The position numbers and the translations under genes are program-made. Source: Candidatus Omnitrophota bacterium (GTDB taxonomy: Bacteria; Omnitrophota; Gorgyraeia; Zapsychrales; Zapsychraceae). From it: a DNA stretch of 64,000 nucleotides. The DNA lies in the NCBI GenBank assembly GCA_029261065.1, contig JAJDCB010000030.1, positions 324,876-388,875 of the forward strand, in the 5' to 3' direction. Within the stretch, counting starts at the first letter, position 1. Each line of letters starts with the position of its first letter. Of the stretch, positions 2,879 through 23,790 are shown piece by piece. The notes beneath the pieces are model-generated. The model had not been told where the DNA came from, searched no databases, and was given only the letters and a program-made list of their open reading frames with translations.

Positions 2879-2907
2879 TTGACAGATATTTAAGCTTCAT
2901 CTATAGT
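2879..2907 (+). promoter_or_regulatory. sigma70-type promoter (TTGACA-17 bp-TATAGT) driving the B12 riboswitch leader
   Basis: TTGACA at 2879-2884, 17-nt spacer, TATAGT at 2902-2907. Confidence 0.5.
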
Positions 2908-3134: not shown

Positions 3135-3172
3135 CTCCCAATCGATTTTATAATCGATTGGGAGTTTTTTTT
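3135..3172 (+). terminator. intrinsic terminator, expression platform of the riboswitch
   Basis: Perfect 12-bp stem CTCCCAATCGAT / ATCGATTGGGAG followed by T8. Confidence 0.65.
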
Positions 3173-3175
3173 GTG

Positions 3176-3268: not shown

Positions 3269-5263
3269 ATGAAAAGATATGTCTTAAGTGTTTTAGTAGC
3301 AACAGTTTTTGTTTTAAATGCGTATAGGGTTGAAGCAAAATTAATAACAGAACATGATGAGGTCGTTGTCACAGCAACACGCATTGCTCAATCGAATTAT
3401 AAGATTGCAAGCAACGTCACGGTTCTGACCGCGGAACAAATTCAGGCGTCGCCCGCGCAAAATTTGGCTGACATCTTAGAAGAAGCGGTGGGTGTTTTTG
3501 TAACAGATAATAGTACCTTAAGATCAAAGGTTATCGATATTCGTGGATTCGGTGATACGGCAACACGAAATGTCTTGGTGTTAATTGATGGCAGACGTGT
3601 CAACGCAATTGACATCTCTGCTCCAGACCTTACTCAAATTCCGTTAGAGGCCATTGAGCGTATCGAAATTATTCGAGGAGCTGGTTCTGTTCTCTATGGA
3701 GATAATGCGGTAGGGGGTGTTGTTAACATCATTACAAAACAAGGGGAAGGTGAGTTCTCTGGATATGTAGGGGGCACACATGGAAATTATGATGCGCGTA
3801 GTACGGACATGGAAGTGTCCGGTGAGAAAAACAATGTTTCTTATTATTTTTTCTCTAAGTATAACGATCAGCGCGGTTATCGTAAGAATAGTGATTTGTT
3901 AGCTAAGGATTTTAGTTCACGTTTAGGCTACGACTTTACCGATACTATTAAAACGGATTTAAGTGTTGGTTATCATAAGGATGTCCAAGAGTTACCCGGG
4001 GGCTTAAGTGGTCCAAACTTAACAACATTGGGTCGACGAGGATCAGCATCTAATAATGATACATCTTCAAGCACCGATCGTTATGTAAAATTGACATTGG
4101 ACGTGGAACCCTGGCCAGAAGATGAAACATTAGGGGAGATCGTTGTTGATTTTTATTATCGCAATCGCGATGTTTATACAGAGTTTAACTCTTTTAGTTC
4201 TTTTCATACCAAGCGATCTTTGGACACCAAAGGCCTTAGCGCTAAATACATCTTTGATCGTACCATTTTTGAGAAGGAAGTTAATTTTGTAACAGGTATC
4301 GATTATTATGAACATGAAAATGATATCTTAGGAAGTGGAACAAATCCGGATGATTTAACCATTTCTAAAGATGAATACGGTATTTATGGATTTTTGCAGT
4401 ATGAATTAATGGATGATGTCTTTATTAATGGAGGAACCCGTTATCATAAAGCGGATTATACGTTTAATCAGAGAAACCTAATGACGGAAAGTGATCGTGA
4501 TCCAGATGATTGGGTCTCTATGGTCGGTGCGAAATGGGAATATGCGAAAGGTTCTAGTATTCATATGAATGCGCAACAAACATTTCGTTTTCCAACAACA
4601 GATGAATGGTATAGTTCCTTTTCTGGAACACTTAATACCGCTTTGGATCCTCAATCGGGCATTCAATATGAGGCTGGCATCAAACATAATTTTGATGATA
4701 TCGCTATTGTGAGTGTCACTCCTTATTATATTTTAATGGATGACGAAATATTTTTTGATCCCGTCACATTCGCCAATGGTAATCTAGACAAAACGCGACG
4801 GATTGGTGTTGAGTTTAGTAAAAAGGTGGATTTACTTAGTATTTTTGAGTTAGATATTCTTGATAAACTTGAATACTTTGCTAATTATACATTTCAGAAT
4901 CCAGAGTTTATAAGGGGAGCGAATAAGGGGAAAGATGTCCCATTGGTTCCTCGTCAACAAGCAGGAACGGGACTTATTGTCGGGTTTAATGACCATGTCA
5001 CTGTTTCGTTATTAGGAACTTATATTGGGTCACGCTTTGCTATCAATGACACCGCTAATGCCACGACACCAGCTAAACCTTATTTCATTTTTGATGGAAA
5101 GGTTTCCTACAAGTTAAAACATCTTGAGGTCTTTGGTTCCGTCAACAACATCACTAATGTGTTATATTCTCCATTTGTTGTTAAGTCAGCGTTTAGTTCA
5201 ACCAAAAACTTTTTTCCAGCTCCTGAACGGAATTTTACGGCTGGAGTGAAGTTTAGGTTTTAA
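3269..5263 (+). CDS. btuB: TonB-dependent outer-membrane receptor, BtuB-like (vitamin B12/corrinoid)
   Basis: Signal peptide. TonB box DEVVVTATR. Plug-domain motifs VLVLIDGRRVN and GGVVNIIT are close to E. coli BtuB. C-terminal aromatic residue (RF). Sits downstream of the B12 riboswitch. Confidence 0.75.
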   Translation: MKRYVLSVLVATVFVLNAYRVEAKLITEHDEVVVTATRIAQSNYKIASNVTVLTAEQIQASPAQNLADILEEAVGVFVTDNSTLRSKVIDIRGFGDTATRNVLVLIDGRRVNAIDISAPDLTQIPLEAIERIEIIRGAGSVLYGDNAVGGVVNIITKQGEGEFSGYVGGTHGNYDARSTDMEVSGEKNNVSYYFFSKYNDQRGYRKNSDLLAKDFSSRLGYDFTDTIKTDLSVGYHKDVQELPGGLSGPNLTTLGRRGSASNNDTSSSTDRYVKLTLDVEPWPEDETLGEIVVDFYYRNRDVYTEFNSFSSFHTKRSLDTKGLSAKYIFDRTIFEKEVNFVTGIDYYEHENDILGSGTNPDDLTISKDEYGIYGFLQYELMDDVFINGGTRYHKADYTFNQRNLMTESDRDPDDWVSMVGAKWEYAKGSSIHMNAQQTFRFPTTDEWYSSFSGTLNTALDPQSGIQYEAGIKHNFDDIAIVSVTPYYILMDDEIFFDPVTFANGNLDKTRRIGVEFSKKVDLLSIFELDILDKLEYFANYTFQNPEFIRGANKGKDVPLVPRQQAGTGLIVGFNDHVTVSLLGTYIGSRFAINDTANATTPAKPYFIFDGKVSYKLKHLEVFGSVNNITNVLYSPFVVKSAFSSTKNFFPAPERNFTAGVKFRF

Positions 5264-5274
5264 TTTGAAGGCAC

Positions 5275-5420
5275 GAGCATCGATTGGTGGTCATTAGCAA
5301 GAGCACTGATTAGTGGTCGCTTCAAGACCACCGATTAGTGGTCACTAGCAAGATCACCGATTGGTGGTCGCTAGCAAGAGCACTGATTGGTGTTCGCTTC
5401 AAGACCACCAATTGGTGATC
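5275..5420. repeat. tandem array of about 6 copies of a 26-bp unit (CACYGATTRGTGGTCRCTWSCAAGAS), each with a short palindrome (CACCGATTGGTG)
   Basis: Seen directly, immediately downstream of the btuB stop. Confidence 0.7.
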
Positions 5421-5424
5421 TTTT

Positions 5425-5447
5425 AATACGCATACCCATGGTATAAT
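5425..5447 (+). promoter_or_regulatory. candidate extended -10 promoter (TGGTATAAT)
   Basis: TGnTATAAT at 5438-5446 with a weak -35. Would give a leader of about 170 nt for the following gene. Confidence 0.3.
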
Positions 5448-5625
5448 CAATGCAACCCCATCAGCACACAAACAAAATTTGTATAGAAAAAGGCGATACT
5501 TATTTGGATTTAGATGGCAGGACTGTTTTTACAGAACAATATCTTTTAAAGCGTGGATACTGTTGTGAGAATAACTGCCGACACTGTCCTTATGGGTTTA
5601 GGCTTGATACATTTAAGGAGGCGTC

Positions 5626-6363
5626 ATGAACGCTGTTTTAAATTGGAGTGGGGGGAAAGATTCTTCTTTAACGTTACATTATTTAAATCAATCCAAAGAA
5701 TACGATGTGAAGTATTTATTGACGTCGGTCAGTAGTCAATATCAGCGTATTTCTATGCATGGGGTTCGTATCGAACTTCTTAAAACACAAGCTAAGAGTC
5801 TTGGCATTCCGTTGCGTATTATAGAGATGCCTGAGGAGCCAACCATGACGGAATATGATGCGTTGATGCGGCAGACTTTGGGCGTTTTTAAAAGAGAGGG
5901 GATTCGTCATTCTATTTTTGGTGATATTTTTTTGGAAGACTTAAAGAAATATAGAGAAGATCAATTGGCCAAGGTTGATTTTAAAGGCGTATTTCCTCTA
6001 TGGCTTAAATCAACACAGGAATTGGTCAAAGAGTTTATAGATTTAGGTTTTAAGGCTGTACTCGTGTGTGTGAATGAAAAGTTTTTGGATCAATCTTTTG
6101 TTGGACGGATCATTGATCACAGGTTTGTGAAAGATCTTCCCGCAAACGTTGATCCGTGTGGTGAAAATGGAGAGTTTCATACTTTTGTTTACGACGGCCC
6201 CATTTTTAAGGCACCTATTTCTTTTGAAAAGGGAGAGGTTGTTTATCGCAAATACAAAATGCGTGAATCTGATAATGAAGCTATGGATCAAGTTTGTCCA
6301 AGTTCGAAGGAATTAAAAATCCATACGGGTTTTTGGTATTGTGATTTGTTGCCTAGTGAATAA
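5626..6363 (+). CDS. Dph6/MJ0570-family PP-loop ATP pyrophosphatase (adenine-nucleotide alpha-hydrolase fold)
   Basis: N-terminal SGGKDS PP-loop (NWSGGKDSSL). Length of about 245 aa is typical of the MJ0570/diphthine-ammonia-ligase-like family. Strong RBS AAGGAGG 6 nt upstream. Confidence 0.65.
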   Translation: MNAVLNWSGGKDSSLTLHYLNQSKEYDVKYLLTSVSSQYQRISMHGVRIELLKTQAKSLGIPLRIIEMPEEPTMTEYDALMRQTLGVFKREGIRHSIFGDIFLEDLKKYREDQLAKVDFKGVFPLWLKSTQELVKEFIDLGFKAVLVCVNEKFLDQSFVGRIIDHRFVKDLPANVDPCGENGEFHTFVYDGPIFKAPISFEKGEVVYRKYKMRESDNEAMDQVCPSSKELKIHTGFWYCDLLPSE

Positions 6364-6399
6364 AAGAATGATTCAAAGTGTGTTATTCTAGAATCAACT

Positions 6400-6500
6400 G
6401 GATTCCCGATGTCTCGGGAATGACAAGTGTACTTGAACACTGGATTCCTGATGATTCAGGAATGACAGGACACCTTGTCATTCCCGCAAAAGCGGGAATC
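6400..6500. repeat. three dRS3-like units (GGATTCC-N-GGAATGACA, two direct and one inverted)
   Basis: Seen directly. ATTCCC/ATTCCT-N8-GGGAAT cores. Confidence 0.7.
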
Positions 6501-6535: not shown

Positions 6536-7450
6536 ATGAAAAAACAAATCGCCGCTATTTTTTTACTTTTTGTCGTCACTGCGCTATTTTTCTCGCCAAA
6601 AAGTTTGTGTCAAACACAACTAGATGTACCGAGTTCTCATCAACGTATTATCTCGTTATCTCCATCGATTACCGAAATTCTTTACGCTCTTGGGGCTGGC
6701 GACCAAGTTGTTGGGGTTACGCGTTTTTGCAATTTTCCTCCTGAGGCTAAAGATAAACCAAAAGTAGGAGGGCTTCTTGATACTAGTTTCGAATTCATTT
6801 ATCGTCTTAAACCGGATCTTGTGTTGTTGCAAAAAGGTGAGATGGGCCAAAAGATGAAATTGGAACAAATGGGTGTGAAAACTGTGGAAACGAAAACGAA
6901 AAGCATTGAGAGCATTTTAGAATCGATTAAGCTGATTGGTGATCTTTTATCGAAGACGTCAGAGGCGAAGGCTATTATTAATCGTATTGAAAAGCGCGTC
7001 TCTTTCATTGAAACACAAACCCAAGGATTAAAGCCTCCTCGTGTTTTAATCACCTTCTCGCGTCATTTTGGGAAAAGAACCATTGAACAAGTTTACATCG
7101 CCGGTCAAGATACGTTTTTTGCAGATCTTTTAAGAGTCTCTGGGGGGAAAAACGCTTATGAGGGAACAGAATTTGTTACAAGTCCGTTAGTCTCCGCGGA
7201 GGGAATATTAAGAATGAATCCCGATATTATTATCGAGATTATGTCTAGTTTAGATGATTTGGGATTAACCCAAGAGGACGTATTAAAAGATTGGGAGAGT
7301 TTAAATCATTTGGATGCTTACAAAAATGAAAAGATATTTATTATCACAGATTCATTCATTGGTATTCCAGGACCCCGGATTGATCAATCTCTAGATGCGT
7401 TTGTACGCATTCTACATTCAGAGGTTGATTGGGAAGGTTTAGATGATTGA
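6536..7450 (+). CDS. btuF: periplasmic substrate-binding protein of a BtuF/HmuT-type (TroA-like) ABC importer
   Basis: Signal peptide. Motif RIISLSPSITEILYALGAGDQVVGVT is typical of cobalamin/heme/siderophore binding proteins. Genomic context with btuB and the riboswitch. Confidence 0.7.
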   Translation: MKKQIAAIFLLFVVTALFFSPKSLCQTQLDVPSSHQRIISLSPSITEILYALGAGDQVVGVTRFCNFPPEAKDKPKVGGLLDTSFEFIYRLKPDLVLLQKGEMGQKMKLEQMGVKTVETKTKSIESILESIKLIGDLLSKTSEAKAIINRIEKRVSFIETQTQGLKPPRVLITFSRHFGKRTIEQVYIAGQDTFFADLLRVSGGKNAYEGTEFVTSPLVSAEGILRMNPDIIIEIMSSLDDLGLTQEDVLKDWESLNHLDAYKNEKIFIITDSFIGIPGPRIDQSLDAFVRILHSEVDWEGLDD

Positions 7451-7460
7451 GGGTTTTAGA

Positions 7461-7642
7461 GCAAGAATAACCAAGTTACAAGAGACAAGGTACAAAAAAG
7501 AAACAAAAATCAATAACCAATTAACCAAACAGTTTGATTATTGGGTTATTGTGAATTGGTTATTTTTTGCCTTTGCGTCTAGAGACGCAGGTCACGGCCA
7601 AAGGCCGTGATATCTTGTACCTTGTAACTTGGTTATTCTTGC
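7461..7642. mobile_element. MITE-like element, copy A (182 bp) with perfect 22-bp terminal inverted repeats GCAAGAATAACCAAGTTACAAG
   Basis: Seen directly. Internal palindromes GCGTCTAGAGACGC and CACGGCCAAAGGCCGTG. Homologous copies at 15320, 41793 and 53507. Confidence 0.75.
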
Positions 7643-7665
7643 TCGTTATTCAAACTAGGATAATT

Positions 7666-8454
7666 ATGACAAATAATGTCGTTGAGTTTAATAATTTTTC
7701 ATTTTCATATGGATCCTCGCCCATTCTTCATCAGATCAATTTAAATGTGAAAGTTGGTCAGTATGTCTCTGTGATTGGCCCTAATGGTGCGGGGAAGTCT
7801 ACGCTTTTAAAGAATATCAATCGGATTGTCAAAGGTGGGACGGGGGAGGTTTTGCTTTTTGGAAAAGAATTGGCGCGTTATAAACAAAAAGACATTGGAC
7901 GATTAGTGGGTTATGTTCAACAGGCCCGTGATCGTATTTATTCTTACCGGGTTTTCGATTTTGTGCTCATGGGACGTTATCCGTATTTAAATCCCCTTTC
8001 TCGTGTGTCCTCTAAAGATAAAGATGTTGTTCATCACATGCTTGATGTTATGGGGATAGCCTCCTTTGCCAATCGTGATATGAACACGTTAAGTGGTGGG
8101 GAGCGGCAAAAGGTTTATTTGGCAGCCGCCCTTGCTCAAGAACCTAAACTGCTCCTCTTAGATGAACCCACGACGTATCTGGATCCAAAATATGAGGTTG
8201 AAATTCAAAAAACCATTTCAAAGACAACTAAAAGATTAGGCATATCCGTCATGCATGTCACGCATGATTTAAATCATATTTATCATTGGAGCCAACATGT
8301 CGTTGCAATGAAAGAAGGGCGCATTTTATTTCAGGGAAAAGCTCAAGATGTTTTAACGGAGTCGCATCTCAAAGATATATTTGATACGGAATTTCATTTG
8401 ATGAAGGATCCTGATTCAGGAAAAATAGTGATTGTTACGAAGGTGGGTGTGTAA
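7666..8454 (+). CDS. btuD: ABC importer ATP-binding protein (BtuD/FhuC-like)
   Basis: Walker A GPNGAGKST, signature LSGGERQ, Walker B LLLLDEPT. Start moved to the ATG at 7666 (RBS AGGA) because the longer ORF starts inside the MITE. Confidence 0.8.
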   Translation: MTNNVVEFNNFSFSYGSSPILHQINLNVKVGQYVSVIGPNGAGKSTLLKNINRIVKGGTGEVLLFGKELARYKQKDIGRLVGYVQQARDRIYSYRVFDFVLMGRYPYLNPLSRVSSKDKDVVHHMLDVMGIASFANRDMNTLSGGERQKVYLAAALAQEPKLLLLDEPTTYLDPKYEVEIQKTISKTTKRLGISVMHVTHDLNHIYHWSQHVVAMKEGRILFQGKAQDVLTESHLKDIFDTEFHLMKDPDSGKIVIVTKVGV

Positions 8455-8455
8455 A

Positions 8456-9436
8456 ATGGCTGTACGCACAAAAATTCTATGTCTTTTTATTATTTCATTA
8501 ATCACACTTATGATAGCCCCTTTGTTAGGGGCGAAGTTGATAGGGTTTAGTGATATTTTTGACGCGTCAAAAAACAATATTGATTCAGATGTGTTTTGGC
8601 AGATGCGTTTGCCGCGTGTATTAGTTGCCTTTATGGCTGGGGCTATATTTGCATTAAGCGGCATGGTCTTTCAGGCGTTGTTTCGCAATCCTTTGGTATC
8701 ACCTTTTACGTTAGGCGTGTCCGCCGGAGCTTCTTTCGGCGCATCCGTTTATATTTGGTTAGGTTTGGCGGTAAGCTTTTTAGGGATATCAGGCATATCA
8801 TTATTTTCTTTTTGTGGTGCGATGTTATCGATTGTTATTGTGTGGTCCTTAGCCAAGATGAAGGGAGGAACATCGGTAGCCACGATGTTGTTAGCCGGGG
8901 TTGCTGTTAGTTTCTTTTTTGGAAGTTTAATCTTATTCGTTCAATATTTAAGTGGCGTGGTGGAAGCCTTTAAAATTTCTCGGTGGTTAATGGGTGGTTT
9001 ATTTGTTTTTGGATATAAACCCGTTTTTGACATTCTACCCTTTGCCTTAATTGGTTTATGTTCTGTTTGGTACTTTACACATGAGTTAAATATTTTTACA
9101 ACAGGTGAAGAATTAGCCATCGCGCGTGGCGTGGATGTTGAGCGCACGGTCAAAATATTATTCTTTCTAATCTCCATCATGATCGGTGGCGTTGTCTCGG
9201 TCTGCGGCCCCATTGCCTTCATCGGCATCATCGCCCCCCACATCTGCCGCCTCATCGTAGGCCCCGATCACCGCTATCTCACGCCCGCCACATTTCTTTT
9301 CGGCGGCCTCTTCCTAACCATCTGCGACGCCCTATCCCGATCCCTCATAGCCCCCGCCGAAATCCCTGTAGGCATCATCACAGCCTTGCTTGGCGGTCCG
9401 TTTTTTTTGTGGTTGTTGGTTAAAAAAAGCTTATGA
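8456..9436 (+). CDS. btuC: ABC importer permease, FecCD/BtuC family
   Basis: About 10 TM helices and FecCD-family conserved blocks. ATG lies immediately after the btuD stop, with an AGGTGGGTG RBS. Confidence 0.75.
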   Translation: MAVRTKILCLFIISLITLMIAPLLGAKLIGFSDIFDASKNNIDSDVFWQMRLPRVLVAFMAGAIFALSGMVFQALFRNPLVSPFTLGVSAGASFGASVYIWLGLAVSFLGISGISLFSFCGAMLSIVIVWSLAKMKGGTSVATMLLAGVAVSFFFGSLILFVQYLSGVVEAFKISRWLMGGLFVFGYKPVFDILPFALIGLCSVWYFTHELNIFTTGEELAIARGVDVERTVKILFFLISIMIGGVVSVCGPIAFIGIIAPHICRLIVGPDHRYLTPATFLFGGLFLTICDALSRSLIAPAEIPVGIITALLGGPFFLWLLVKKSL

Positions 9437-9543: not shown

Positions 9544-9777
9544 ATGGATGACAAAATACGAATAATAGATGGTGAGCCTATCTCTTTGCAAATAAAGAGT
9601 TTAAGAATGAAAAGTGGCTTAACTCAAGTTGAGTTTGCTAAACGGGTTGGGGTGGGCTTACGGTTTTTACGAGAGCTTGAGCAAGGGAAGACTACGGTAA
9701 GAATGGATAAGCTTGTACAGGTTTTGGATTTCTTAGGCTATCATTTAGATTTAAAGAAAAATGAACCGCAATATTAA
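9544..9777 (+). CDS. hipB: HipB-like XRE-family helix-turn-helix regulator
   Basis: 77-aa HTH protein (LTQVEFAKRVGV). First gene of a three-gene module. Confidence 0.7.
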   Translation: MDDKIRIIDGEPISLQIKSLRMKSGLTQVEFAKRVGVGLRFLRELEQGKTTVRMDKLVQVLDFLGYHLDLKKNEPQY

Positions 9778-9785
9778 AGGAAAAG

Positions 9786-10127
9786 GTGCTTATGAAGGTG
9801 TTAAGAAAAGCAAATGTTTTTTATATTAATGAATTGGCGGGGCATCTTACAGAGACTTCAGAAGGGTACATTTTTCAATACGATTCTAGCTTTTTAAAAA
9901 AGAATATCCCCATCTCTTTGACCTTACCTCCAAGGGAAGAGGCTTATGAATCAAAAGAATTATTTTTGTTTTTTAAAGGTCTTTTACCAGAAGGGTGGTA
10001 TTTGGATATCGTGAGTGCCACACAAAAAGTGGATAGCCAGGATTCATTTGGGGTCTTATTAGCTACGGCGAGTGTTGATACTATAGGTGCGGTTACGGTA
10101 AGGAAGGTCGATATTACAAATGAATGA
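9786..10127 (+). CDS. hipS: HipS-like protein (stand-alone HipA N-terminal subdomain)
   Basis: 113-aa protein between the HTH gene and the kinase gene, overlapping the kinase gene by 8 nt. Matches the HipB-HipS-HipT tripartite arrangement. Confidence 0.55.
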   Translation: MLMKVLRKANVFYINELAGHLTETSEGYIFQYDSSFLKKNIPISLTLPPREEAYESKELFLFFKGLLPEGWYLDIVSATQKVDSQDSFGVLLATASVDTIGAVTVRKVDITNE

Positions 10128-10983
10128 GAAATTTTTAAAAAAGATGTTTAATTCAACACGAACGCCGATAATAAATTTTGGTTTAGCCGATTTATCTCAA
10201 CAAGCGCAAAGATTAGCTGGAAAACTGTCCATCTCGGGTGTTCAGCCAAAATTATCCGTTAAGTTGGATAAAAAAAGTAATGAGTTAATTGTTGTTAATG
10301 ATGGGGGCGAATATATATTAAAACCACAAATCGCGACCTTCACGCATATTCCTGAGAATGAACAGTGTTGTATGGATATAGCAGAGAAGTTGGGTATTGA
10401 TATTCCTCTACATTGTTTGTTACCTTTAAAAGATAAAAGCTTTGCCTATGTCGTTAAAAGATTTGATCGAGATAAGGGTACAAAAATTCATCAAGAAGAT
10501 TTTGCGCAATTGCTTGAGCAAAATGATAAGTATAAAGGGTCTGTAGAGCATATTGGTCGAAAGTTAAAAGATATATCCTCAATTCCAGGTTATGATCTCC
10601 AATTGTTTTTTGAAAGGGTTGTCCTTAATTTTATCCTCGGGAATGGTGATGCCCATCTAAAAAATTATTCTATGTTATATAAAGATGGTAACACTCGATT
10701 AACTCCTGCCTATGATATTGTTTGTTCAAAGTTAGTTATCCCCGAGGAAGAAGACTCGGCCTTAACCATTAATGGTAAAAAGAATAATTTAAAAAGGGAT
10801 GATTTTGAGAAGTTAGCTGAGTATTTCAATATTCCTACGAAGGTTCGGTATGAAAAGTTTGAAGGAAAACTTGATGTAATGAACCAATGTATTGAATCTT
10901 CAAATATGAGTCAGGACAAGCAAAAGCGGTTTATCGAGATTATAAATGAGAGATTAAGACGTTTGGAGTTATTAAAAAGATAG
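10120..10983 (+). CDS. hipT: HipT-like Ser/Thr kinase toxin (HipA C-terminal kinase core)
   Basis: HipA catalytic motif GNGDAHLKNYS. Gly-rich loop SISGVQPKLS. Confidence 0.65.
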   Translation: MNEKFLKKMFNSTRTPIINFGLADLSQQAQRLAGKLSISGVQPKLSVKLDKKSNELIVVNDGGEYILKPQIATFTHIPENEQCCMDIAEKLGIDIPLHCLLPLKDKSFAYVVKRFDRDKGTKIHQEDFAQLLEQNDKYKGSVEHIGRKLKDISSIPGYDLQLFFERVVLNFILGNGDAHLKNYSMLYKDGNTRLTPAYDIVCSKLVIPEEEDSALTINGKKNNLKRDDFEKLAEYFNIPTKVRYEKFEGKLDVMNQCIESSNMSQDKQKRFIEIINERLRRLELLKR

Positions 10984-11090
10984 CAGGCGGTATATTTAAT
11001 AAAAGAAAATAGAATAAAAGAAAGAAATGTGAAGCTTTAGGTTTATCTGTTAATTTGATTTAATAAATTGTCTTTTTTGCCATCTCCACC

Positions 11091-11186
11091 CTCCTCATAG
11101 CCCCCGCCGAAATCCCCGTAGGCATCATTAAAGCTTTACTTGGGGGACCATTCTTCTTGTGGTTACTGGTGAAGAAGCGGTTATAA
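11091..11186 (+). repeat. duplicated copy 2 of the btuC 3' end (about 96 bp, about 85% identical, reading frame partly intact)
   Basis: Seen directly. CTCATAGCCCCCGCCGAAATCCCcGTAGGCATCAT...TTGTGGTT aligns with 9343-9436. Confidence 0.8.
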
Positions 11187-11285
11187 TTTCTCATAGTTAA
11201 TAATAATTGATAGTGTTTGGAAAAAGAGACAAATCATTGTAAACTTGTATTAATTATTCAAATTACATGAAATGGAGGAGAAGCT

Positions 11286-11507
11286 ATGACGACAAAAGAA
11301 ATTGAAAAAAGCGCATTGAAATTAAAGCCTCTTGAAAAAATTAAACTTGTCGATAAGTTATTAATTAGTCTAGATAAGCCCAATCCGGATATTGAACGGT
11401 TATGGCTAAAAGAGGCTGAATCTAGAGTTGATGCCTATGAGAAGGGTGAATTAAAAACTTCATCTTATGAAACAGTTAAAAAAAATACTAAAAGACGTAA
11501 AAAATGA
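11286..11507 (+). CDS. antitoxin of a ParE/RelE-type module (putative addiction-module component)
   Basis: 73 aa, charged C-terminus. Overlaps the downstream toxin gene by 4 nt (ATGA). Confidence 0.5.
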   Translation: MTTKEIEKSALKLKPLEKIKLVDKLLISLDKPNPDIERLWLKEAESRVDAYEKGELKTSSYETVKKNTKRRKK

Positions 11508-22917: not shown

Positions 22918-22991
22918 CTGTCATTCCCGCGGAAGCGGGGATCTGTACGGGATGACATTTGCGTGTGTCATTCCTGCGAAAGCGGAAAACC
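22918..22991. repeat. dRS3-like units (TGTCATTCCCGCGGAAGCGGGGATC and TGTCATTCCTGCGAAAGCGGAAAAC)
   Basis: Seen directly. Confidence 0.7.
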
Positions 22992-23684: not shown

Positions 23685-23790
23685 TCCCGAATTGTCATTC
23701 CCGTGAAAGCGGGAATCTATACGGAGCGATTAATATATTTTAGTTCATAGTTTTACTATTTTGAGGTTCCCGCTTTCGCGGGAATGACAA
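23685..23790. repeat. dRS3-like units (TGTCATTCCCGTGAAAGCGGGAATC and inverted GGTTCCCGCTTTCGCGGGAATGACA)
   Basis: Seen directly. Confidence 0.7.

Follow-up and report, generated by a model that had tools for sequence, protein, structure and literature searches.

We analyzed a 64,000-nt stretch of DNA from a Candidatus Omnitrophota bacterium (GenBank assembly GCA_029261065.1, contig JAJDCB010000030.1, positions 324,876 to 388,875 of the forward strand; hereafter the window, numbered from its first nucleotide), in which the gene for a PP-loop ATP pyrophosphatase lies within a riboswitch-controlled operon for corrinoid uptake. In its sequence features the gene is typical of the DUF71-B12 subgroup. 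The encoded protein belongs to the DUF71 family, has intact ATP-binding motifs and bears the subgroup signature, and both operon structure and regulon tie such genes to B12 genes in many lineages. The PP-loop gene very probably has a role in B12 salvage. The likeliest function of its product, within this riboswitch-controlled operon, is the ATP-dependent ligation of an amide to a carboxylate of a corrinoid, a proposition we regard as evenly balanced.

The PP-loop protein belongs to the DUF71-B12 subgroup

An earlier reading of the window from its letters and open reading frames (ORFs), here called the sequence-only reading, had assigned the 245-aa product with its SGGKDS motif to a Dph6/MJ0570-like PP-loop family. 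Profile searches bear this out: the protein (N-terminus MNAVLNWSGGKDSS) matches the Pfam model PF01902 (Diphthami_syn_2, formerly ATP_bind_4/DUF71) with 140 bits against a cut-off of 23.2 (E 1.1e-40), which for a sequence match is far beyond chance. By contrast, its 94.9 bits against TIGR03679, the NCBIfam equivalog of archaeal Dph6, remain under the cut-off of 197.3. Sequence matches in the PDB consist only of the archaeal Dph6 proteins PF0828 (3RJZ, 3RK0, 3RK1) and PH1257 (2D13). An AlphaFold2 model, made from an alignment of 42 sequences, has a mean predicted local distance difference test (pLDDT) score of 85.8, with residues 213-232 disordered. Foldseek places this model on the archaeal Dph6 structures with template modelling (TM) scores of 0.64-0.79, and the next-best matches are other PP-loop enzymes with TM <=0.4.

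Alignment with PF0828 shows that the ATP-contact residues are intact: S12, G13, G14, K15, D16, H48 and T189 of the archaeal protein correspond to the SGGKDS loop at residues 8-13, H45 and T186. Further along, GENGEFHTF (residues 179-187) is aligned to GEGGEFETF, with His185 at the position of Glu188 and Asn181 at the position of Gly. Because this pairing displays the E188-to-H and G-to-N change, the window protein carries the DUF71-B12 signature. The substitution is not the only mark of the subgroup: the pocket block FGDIFLEDxxxYRE is also subgroup-specific, and the pocket is unlike that of Dph6. ENGE[FY]H is found in 79 of the 81 tabulated homologues, the remaining two having EYGEFH or EHGEFH, and the looser pattern E.GE[FY]H in about 140 of the 150 best family representatives. 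The family as a whole is large, with 5371 representatives at 50% identity matching with E <=1e-3. Residues 210-245 form a C-terminal extension, in part disordered in the model, which the Bacteroidota-type relatives also have.

The division of COG2102/DUF71 into Dph6 and DUF71-B12 was made by de Crécy-Lagard et al. in 2012 (Biol Direct 7:32, PMC3541065). In DUF71-B12, the motif ENGEF/YH replaces the EGGE/DxE188 of Dph6; 75 of 102 genes lie beside B12 transporter genes and 18 of 102 beside cbiB, and the linkage to B12 genes extends to archaea and Firmicutes (PMC3541065). The link to B12, which the sequence-only reading had called unrecognised, was thus already in print, and the ENGEFH of the window protein is its published signature; that reading independently re-derived a known association. 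The re-amidation mechanism that it put forward is not the one favoured in the 2012 paper. In 2016 a review by that laboratory continued to list DUF71-B12 as 'function unknown, B12 salvage'. Our full-text literature search returned no experimental test of DUF71-B12 and no paper proposing corrinoid re-amidation.

Nothing essential separates the window protein from this subgroup, with which it shares the Pfam domain, the intact PP-loop, ENGEF/YH, adjacent genes for a BtuFCD-type transporter and a B12 riboswitch. It comes from an uncultured low-GC bacterium, and it has the C-terminal extension and an overlapping DUF5522 gene ahead of it. Its likeness to Dph6 (PF0828, PH1257, yeast YLR143w) covers the fold, the ATP-binding residues and probably also the chemistry, that is, adenylation of a carboxylate followed by amidation with ammonia. 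It is separated from Dph6 (EC 6.3.1.14) by its score under the equivalog cut-off, by His in place of the catalytic-site Glu188 and by the absence of the EGGE/DxE188 motif. The host also differs: bacteria do not make diphthamide (PMC3541065), and the window comes from a Gram-negative-type bacterium, outside the archaea and eukaryotes that do. We take the host to be diderm because of the TonB-dependent outer-membrane receptor and the bacterial riboswitch with an intrinsic terminator.

The gene lies in a riboswitch-controlled uptake operon

The operon consists of a cobalamin riboswitch followed by genes for a TonB-dependent receptor, DUF5522, the PP-loop protein, BtuF, BtuD and BtuC, all on the + strand (Table 1). 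These expression signals link the PP-loop gene to corrinoid import. The linkage to a riboswitch-regulated B12 importer, on which the sequence-only reading had relied, is borne out by the aptamer, the receptor and the three transporter components. The riboswitch matches Rfam with 55 bits against a gathering score of 31.5 (E 6e-11) over the full model length (1-189), and our own core covariance model R1 with 81.7 bits; the terminator-like hairpin behind it is its probable expression platform. The receptor scores beneath the BtuB equivalog cut-off (TIGR01779 / NF007926; 152 against 600 bits), so that we describe it as BtuB-like, a specificity for B12 being suggested by the riboswitch and the operon context. 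The permease has NF007081 BtuC as its best match, with a score beneath the cut-off of that model. The ABC transporter ATPase gene probably starts at the ATG at 7666.

Earlier, the PP-loop gene had been described as lying between btuB and btuF, with a strong ribosome-binding site of its own and possibly an extended -10 promoter. The flanking genes are as described, yet the overlapping DUF5522 gene in the same gap had been overlooked. The Shine-Dalgarno sequence AAGGAGG (5615-5621) does lie 4 nt 5' of the PP-loop ATG, but it is located inside the DUF5522 ORF. A TGgTATAAT site exists at 5439-5447; it lacks a matching -35 element and ends 2 nt ahead of the DUF5522 start codon, and therefore makes no ordinary promoter for DUF5522. 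It is a weak sign of independent transcription. The gap between the receptor gene and DUF5522 contains no terminator-like site.

Homologues recur beside B12 genes

To place the operon among its relatives, we surveyed 80 species-representative homologous loci, in which neighbouring proteins were clustered all-against-all and cluster representatives annotated with Pfam. Riboswitches in these loci were sought with Rfam and with our own covariance model of the 5' riboswitch core. We modelled the core because six full-length riboswitches could not be aligned well enough with MAFFT; divergent riboswitches can escape such a model. A tblastn search for Btu neighbours with the window proteins was dropped: receptors and binding proteins are too divergent, and most of the context was missed.

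The nearest relatives of the PP-loop protein have 59-67% identity, come mostly from Bacteroidota and are annotated as 'Dph6-related ATP pyrophosphatase' or 'diphthine--ammonia ligase'. Of the 80 loci, 24 have neighbours for B12 transport or salvage. A TonB-dependent receptor of the same family is present in 22 of these 24, nearly always upstream on the same strand, and the riboswitch core in 20, with 18 upstream on the same strand. Genes for BtuF, DUF6580, a DUF5074 beta-propeller and MarC are also recurrent there. Cobalamin riboswitches are confirmed by Rfam in loci L028, L037, L064, L084 and L085, and matches to the adenosylcobalamin (AdoCbl) riboswitch fall below threshold in L004 and L091. 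Salvage genes proper (cobU, cobT, cobS, cobC) lie beside the PP-loop gene (X) in eight loci, either rearranged or in the order cobU-X-cobT-cobS-cobC (L026, L055, L062, L065). In 13 Chryseobacterium loci the upstream neighbour is a B12-dependent IcmF-like fused gene (B12-binding, MeaB, mutase). Homologues of the gene are thus recurrently associated with btu and cob genes, as the sequence-only reading had proposed to check; a pattern in which they never co-occur with B12 genes elsewhere is not observed.

A neighbour-joining tree, which takes in close relatives only, groups the window protein with that of an Omnitrophota metagenome-assembled genome (MAG; L004) and with Bacteroidales sequences, all B12-linked, and the unlinked loci form two derived clades. 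The form of the PP-loop follows the same division. SGGKDS outnumbers altered loops 22 to 1 in the B12-linked loci and is outnumbered 8 to 48 in the rest, in counts made without a correction for shared ancestry. SSGKDS or STGKDS prevails in the unlinked and IcmF-linked clades (Flavobacterium, Chryseobacterium, Aquimarina, Tenacibaculum). The split between SGGKDS and SSGKDS may simply mark the Flavobacteriales lineage, or it may mark a functional shift.

Several loci show arrangements of their own. L085 has the order riboswitch-receptor-(DUF5522)-X. In L084, the closest long-contig relative, the string MetH ... CMD-DUF5522-X is followed by riboswitch-receptor-BtuF-BtuD-BtuC; the riboswitch (8841-8980) follows the DUF5522-PP-loop pair and precedes the receptor gene, and the pair is part of the MetH ... 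CMD gene string, not under that riboswitch. An uncultured Flavobacteriaceae MAG (L028) has two tandem overlapping PP-loop paralogues (9998-10729 and 10726-11373) in one riboswitch-controlled operon, the second (215 aa, ENGEYH) being highly divergent from the first. DUF6580 (~190 aa) recurs in the B12 operons of L004 (7219-7764), L026, L028, L031, L033, L047, L048, L051, L065 and L072, usually directly after the receptor gene and in L004 before it. In other loci its place is taken by a DUF5074 beta-propeller (~360 aa), and MarC is a frequent neighbour downstream of the PP-loop gene. In the 685-aa database protein P0368, possibly through an artefact of gene calling, DUF6580 and the PP-loop domain are fused. 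Other fusions among the family representatives are heterogeneous (GNAT, VanY, methyltransferase, PPTase), and some of them may be artefacts of gene calling; unlike those with CWC and DUF6580, they offer no consistent functional lead.

A cysteine-rich protein is encoded ahead of many B12-linked genes

At the ATGA junction, the start codon of the PP-loop gene and the TGA stop codon of DUF5522 (PF17653) have bases in common. Because of this overlap and the ribosome-binding site inside the DUF5522 ORF, the two genes look translationally coupled. The closest relatives, L084 and L085, likewise have DUF5522 (at 7831-8004 and about 4205-4336, respectively) immediately 5' of the PP-loop gene. In other B12-linked loci the same position is occupied by a Cys_rich_CWC protein (PF14375) of 71-75 aa, and ORFs of about 70-75 aa lie directly 5' of the PP-loop gene or of cobU in L026, L031, L033, L048, L051, L055, L066 and L081. 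The small Cys-rich ORFs upstream of B12-linked DUF71-B12 genes often overlap them. The two Cys-rich types are themselves joined in L028 (9308-9652) and L065 (9058-9441), where a single protein of 114-127 aa is CWC-like in its N-terminal half and DUF5522 in its C-terminal half. Further instances upstream of or fused with the DUF71-B12 gene include L091 (6001-6876) and L093, in which the order is receptor-CWC-X-MarC with the CWC ORF at 7001-7219. One of the 50%-identity family representatives, P0311, is a CWC-PP-loop fusion; it is found on four contigs and adjoins a receptor gene that has an AdoCbl riboswitch match below threshold. Searching for homologues of the CWC protein gave at least four matches. 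In a second family representative the N-terminal region has a weak BFD-like [2Fe-2S] match (E 0.069).

A six-frame profile search detects a DUF5522 or CWC ORF in 10 of the 24 B12-linked loci and in none of the 56 others. Fisher's test gives p 1e-6 for this association, for loci that are phylogenetically related and with no phylogenetic correction, and the search profiles were partly built from the same surveyed sequences. In the Sulfurospirillum cluster for cobamide biosynthesis induced by tetrachloroethene (PCE), a cysteine-rich CWC protein is encoded between cbiA and sirC (PMC7755780). The 2012 paper on DUF71-B12 does not mention such a Cys-rich protein (PMC3541065), and our literature search found no mention of DUF5522 or PF17653. 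The Cys-rich partner genes and their fusions with DUF71-B12 genes thus appear to be undescribed so far. The Cys-rich protein is probably a metal- or cluster-binding partner of the PP-loop enzyme; its structure model in the case of DUF5522 has low confidence (pLDDT 68).

Proposed function and alternative explanations

In the PP-loop enzymes NAD synthetase, asparagine synthetase and Dph6, a carboxylate is first adenylated and then amidated. By analogy, the window enzyme would bind ATP at the SGGKDS loop and adenylate a free side-chain carboxylate of an imported corrinoid that is incomplete or damaged, with release of PPi. Ammonia or another amine would resolve the acyl-adenylate and restore the amide, and the resulting corrinoid could be converted to the cofactor via CbiB, CobU, CobT and CobS. 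Taken as a reaction in itself, amide ligation to a corrinoid carboxylate falls in our estimate a little short of evenly balanced. Re-amidation would be the chemically most natural and conservative reading of a PP-loop enzyme, and it would be in line with the objection that a reviewer of the 2012 paper, Aravind, raised there: PP-loop amidoligases are hardly ever reused as hydrolases (PMC3541065).

Known amide-forming enzymes resemble such an activity in part. NadE (NH3-dependent NAD synthetase) and asparagine synthetase have the SGGxDS loop and the same course from carboxylate over acyl-AMP to amide. They share the Rossmann-like core alone, however, and differ in the substrate domain, and the window protein is without a glutaminase domain. 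The de novo corrin amidotransferases CobQ/CbiP and CobB/CbiA would share the substrate class, since they convert acetate and propionate side chains of the corrin to amides. Their folds are unrelated, though; they phosphorylate the carboxylate (ATP to ADP + Pi) and use glutamine, and their place is in de novo synthesis rather than in uptake operons.

Several points weigh against an amide ligase for corrinoids. The substrate is not deducible from sequence; a corrinoid as substrate, amide formation and the partnership with the Cys-rich protein are all inferred. The authors of the 2012 study favoured a replacement of CbiZ instead (PMC3541065). In the window, the 186-nt repeat-filled gap between the receptor gene and DUF5522 makes co-transcription with btuB uncertain. 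The Cys-rich ORF is missing in many B12-linked loci, including L004, L037 and L064, and a general B12 linkage of DUF5522 was rejected, as in three unrelated Bacteroidota loci DUF5522 adjoins an aminotransferase, urocanase or ribosomal protein L28. Finally, in 43 of the 80 surveyed loci (Flavobacterium, Aquimarina, Algoriphagus, Hymenobacter and others) neither a B12 gene nor a riboswitch lies within 10 kb, so that a corrinoid role either is not universal or is not always encoded by linkage.

These unlinked loci would also suit an enzyme that modifies some other carboxylate, on a metabolite or a protein, its place in B12 operons being due to co-regulation or hitch-hiking. The heterogeneous fusions described above point the same way, as does the arrangement in Flavobacterium, where 68 nt separate the PP-loop gene from a divergent M1 peptidase gene, a spacing with no room for a riboswitch. 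Against a non-corrinoid substrate, the B12 linkage recurs in varied arrangements and phyla (Bacteroidota, Omnitrophota and Balneolaceae, with archaea and Firmicutes according to the 2012 paper). The unlinked loci make up two derived clades in which the PP-loop is mostly altered (SSGKDS), which suggests secondary relocation or changed function rather than an ancestral role outside B12 metabolism. We consider a non-corrinoid substrate unlikely.

The 2012 proposal concerns a different reaction on corrinoids. Bacterial genomes show a strict anticorrelation between DUF71-B12 and CbiZ, and DUF71-B12 co-occurs with CbiB; the two proteins were proposed to be functionally interchangeable (PMC3541065). 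Because of this anticorrelation, the authors cautiously suggested a pseudo-B12 amidohydrolase or 'another role' in salvage (PMC3541065). The enzyme would then stand in for CbiZ by cleaving or remodelling adenosyl-pseudo-B12 or cobinamide to cobyric acid, or serve another route of pseudo-B12 salvage. CbiZ and CbiR, the cobamide remodelling hydrolases, do share the genomic niche beside B12 transport and nucleotide-loop genes, and the cobU, cobT, cobS and cobC neighbours in our survey are places where a remodelling enzyme would be useful. Both are nevertheless hydrolases of unrelated folds that lack ATP-binding motifs, whereas the ATP-binding PP-loop of the subgroup is fully conserved, which argues for ATP-consuming ligase chemistry. 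A complete cobamide, moreover, has no carboxylate for adenylation. Amidoligase superfamilies have hardly ever turned into amidohydrolases, as Aravind held, and the authors conceded that they saw no structural sign of a shift to a hydrolase (PMC3541065). A replacement of CbiZ appears quite unlikely to us.

A ligase for the f side chain would keep the adenylating chemistry and change the amine. Acting in the manner of CbiB but by adenylation, it would join aminopropanol (or its phosphate), or a preformed unit of linker and lower ligand, to cobyric acid. PP-loop and other adenylating enzymes can in general form amides with amines other than ammonia, and the PP-loop gene does stand between cobU and cobT in operons that have the remaining genes of nucleotide-loop assembly but not cbiB. 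DUF71-B12 nevertheless co-occurs with cbiB, adjacent to it in 18 of 102 cases, and does not replace it (PMC3541065), and the PP-loop gene of the window accompanies uptake genes only; we judge such a ligase improbable. A PP-loop reaction other than amidation, such as a thiolation, might also act on a corrinoid or another substrate; the enzyme would then be comparable to TtuA, NcsA or LarE, and the Cys-rich partner would provide an Fe-S cluster or relay sulfur. The partner does recur and is fused in one case, a second family representative has the weak BFD-like match, and the secondary fold matches are NcsA and LarE. Those matches, however, reflect the shared PP-loop core only (TM about 0.3-0.4), the partner is lacking in over half of the B12-linked loci, the DUF5522 model has low confidence, and no thio-corrinoid is known; we rate such a reaction as highly improbable.

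Repeats and other features of the window

Repeat arrays flank the DUF5522-PP-loop gene pair on both sides and had escaped the sequence-only reading. Upstream, the space from the receptor gene to DUF5522 is taken up by a 26-nt tandem repeat; its motif has seven matches in the 64-kb window, all of them there, against 0.01 expected. The repeat could represent operator sites, an RNA structure or a minisatellite. Palindromes resembling repetitive extragenic palindromic (REP) elements, ATTCCCGCRAAAGCGGGAAT and variants, are intergenic and often paired (2692-2772, 6402-6499, 22923-22989, 23697-23785), and one such pair lies downstream of the PP-loop gene, between it and btuF. They yield spurious small ORFs, for example '...IPAKAGI...'.

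Searching the 64-kb window by tblastn with CobU, CobT, CobS, CobC, MetH and IcmF queries gave no match. Directly 3' of btuC (9544-10983), an XRE-type helix-turn-helix ORF (77 aa) is followed by two ORFs of 113 and 287 aa which, from their translations only, look like a split HipA-type toxin. From 9400 to 64000, all 44 ORFs of at least 200 aa are on the + strand, and the GC content is 37%.

Table 1. Features of the corrinoid uptake operon and the adjoining repeats in the window
Feature	Positions	Strand	Remarks
Sigma-70-like promoter TTGACA-17-TATAGT	2879-2907	+	11/12 consensus match only; directly 5' of the riboswitch
Cobalamin riboswitch aptamer RF00174	2932-3076	+	Short form without the long P6 extension
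Intrinsic-terminator-like hairpin	3135-3174	+	13-bp stem, then T8
TonB-dependent outer-membrane receptor	3269-5263	+	Plug and beta-barrel domains (Pfam)
26-nt tandem repeat, 5.7 copies	5271-5417		Consensus GCAAGAGCACCGATTGGTGGTCACTA; each unit with a CACCGATTGGTG-type palindrome
DUF5522 (PF17653), 59-aa cysteine-rich protein	5450-5629	+	Pfam E 2.8e-19; invariant RG.CC...C.HCPY
PP-loop gene, DUF71-B12-type ATP pyrophosphatase	5626-6363	+	245 aa; SGGKDS residues 8-13; ENGEFH residues 180-185
REP-like palindromic elements, ATTCCCGCAAAAGCGGGAAT type	6378-6500		Dispersed in the window; last one like a weak terminator
Periplasmic binding protein, BtuF-like	6536-7450	+	Peripla_BP_2
ABC transporter ATPase, BtuD-like	7567-8454	+	Pfam, NCBIfam
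FecCD-family permease, BtuC-like	8432-9436	+	Pfam, NCBIfam

Implications for corrinoid salvage

At least two-thirds of bacteria rely on corrinoids that they scavenge, and incomplete and damaged forms are part of the pool in the environment. Besides DUF71-B12, few widespread B12-linked enzyme families still lack an assigned reaction. The window locus itself adds little beyond one more example of this family, whose central association has been known since 2012. If its members do re-amidate corrinoid carboxylates, a repair branch would be added to the map of corrinoid salvage, and predictions of which corrinoids an organism can use would change. The recurrent Cys-rich partner is a new and concrete handle on the problem, and suggests that attempts at reconstitution should include the Cys-rich protein. 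It is a tentative and rather doubtful extension that the DUF71-B12 ATPase and the Cys-rich protein (DUF5522 and/or CWC) form an undescribed two-component corrinoid repair system, which re-amidates or otherwise re-activates scavenged corrinoids with free side-chain carboxylates. Were this true, degraded corrinoids from the environment, otherwise of no use or inhibitory to B12 auxotrophs, could serve them after all.

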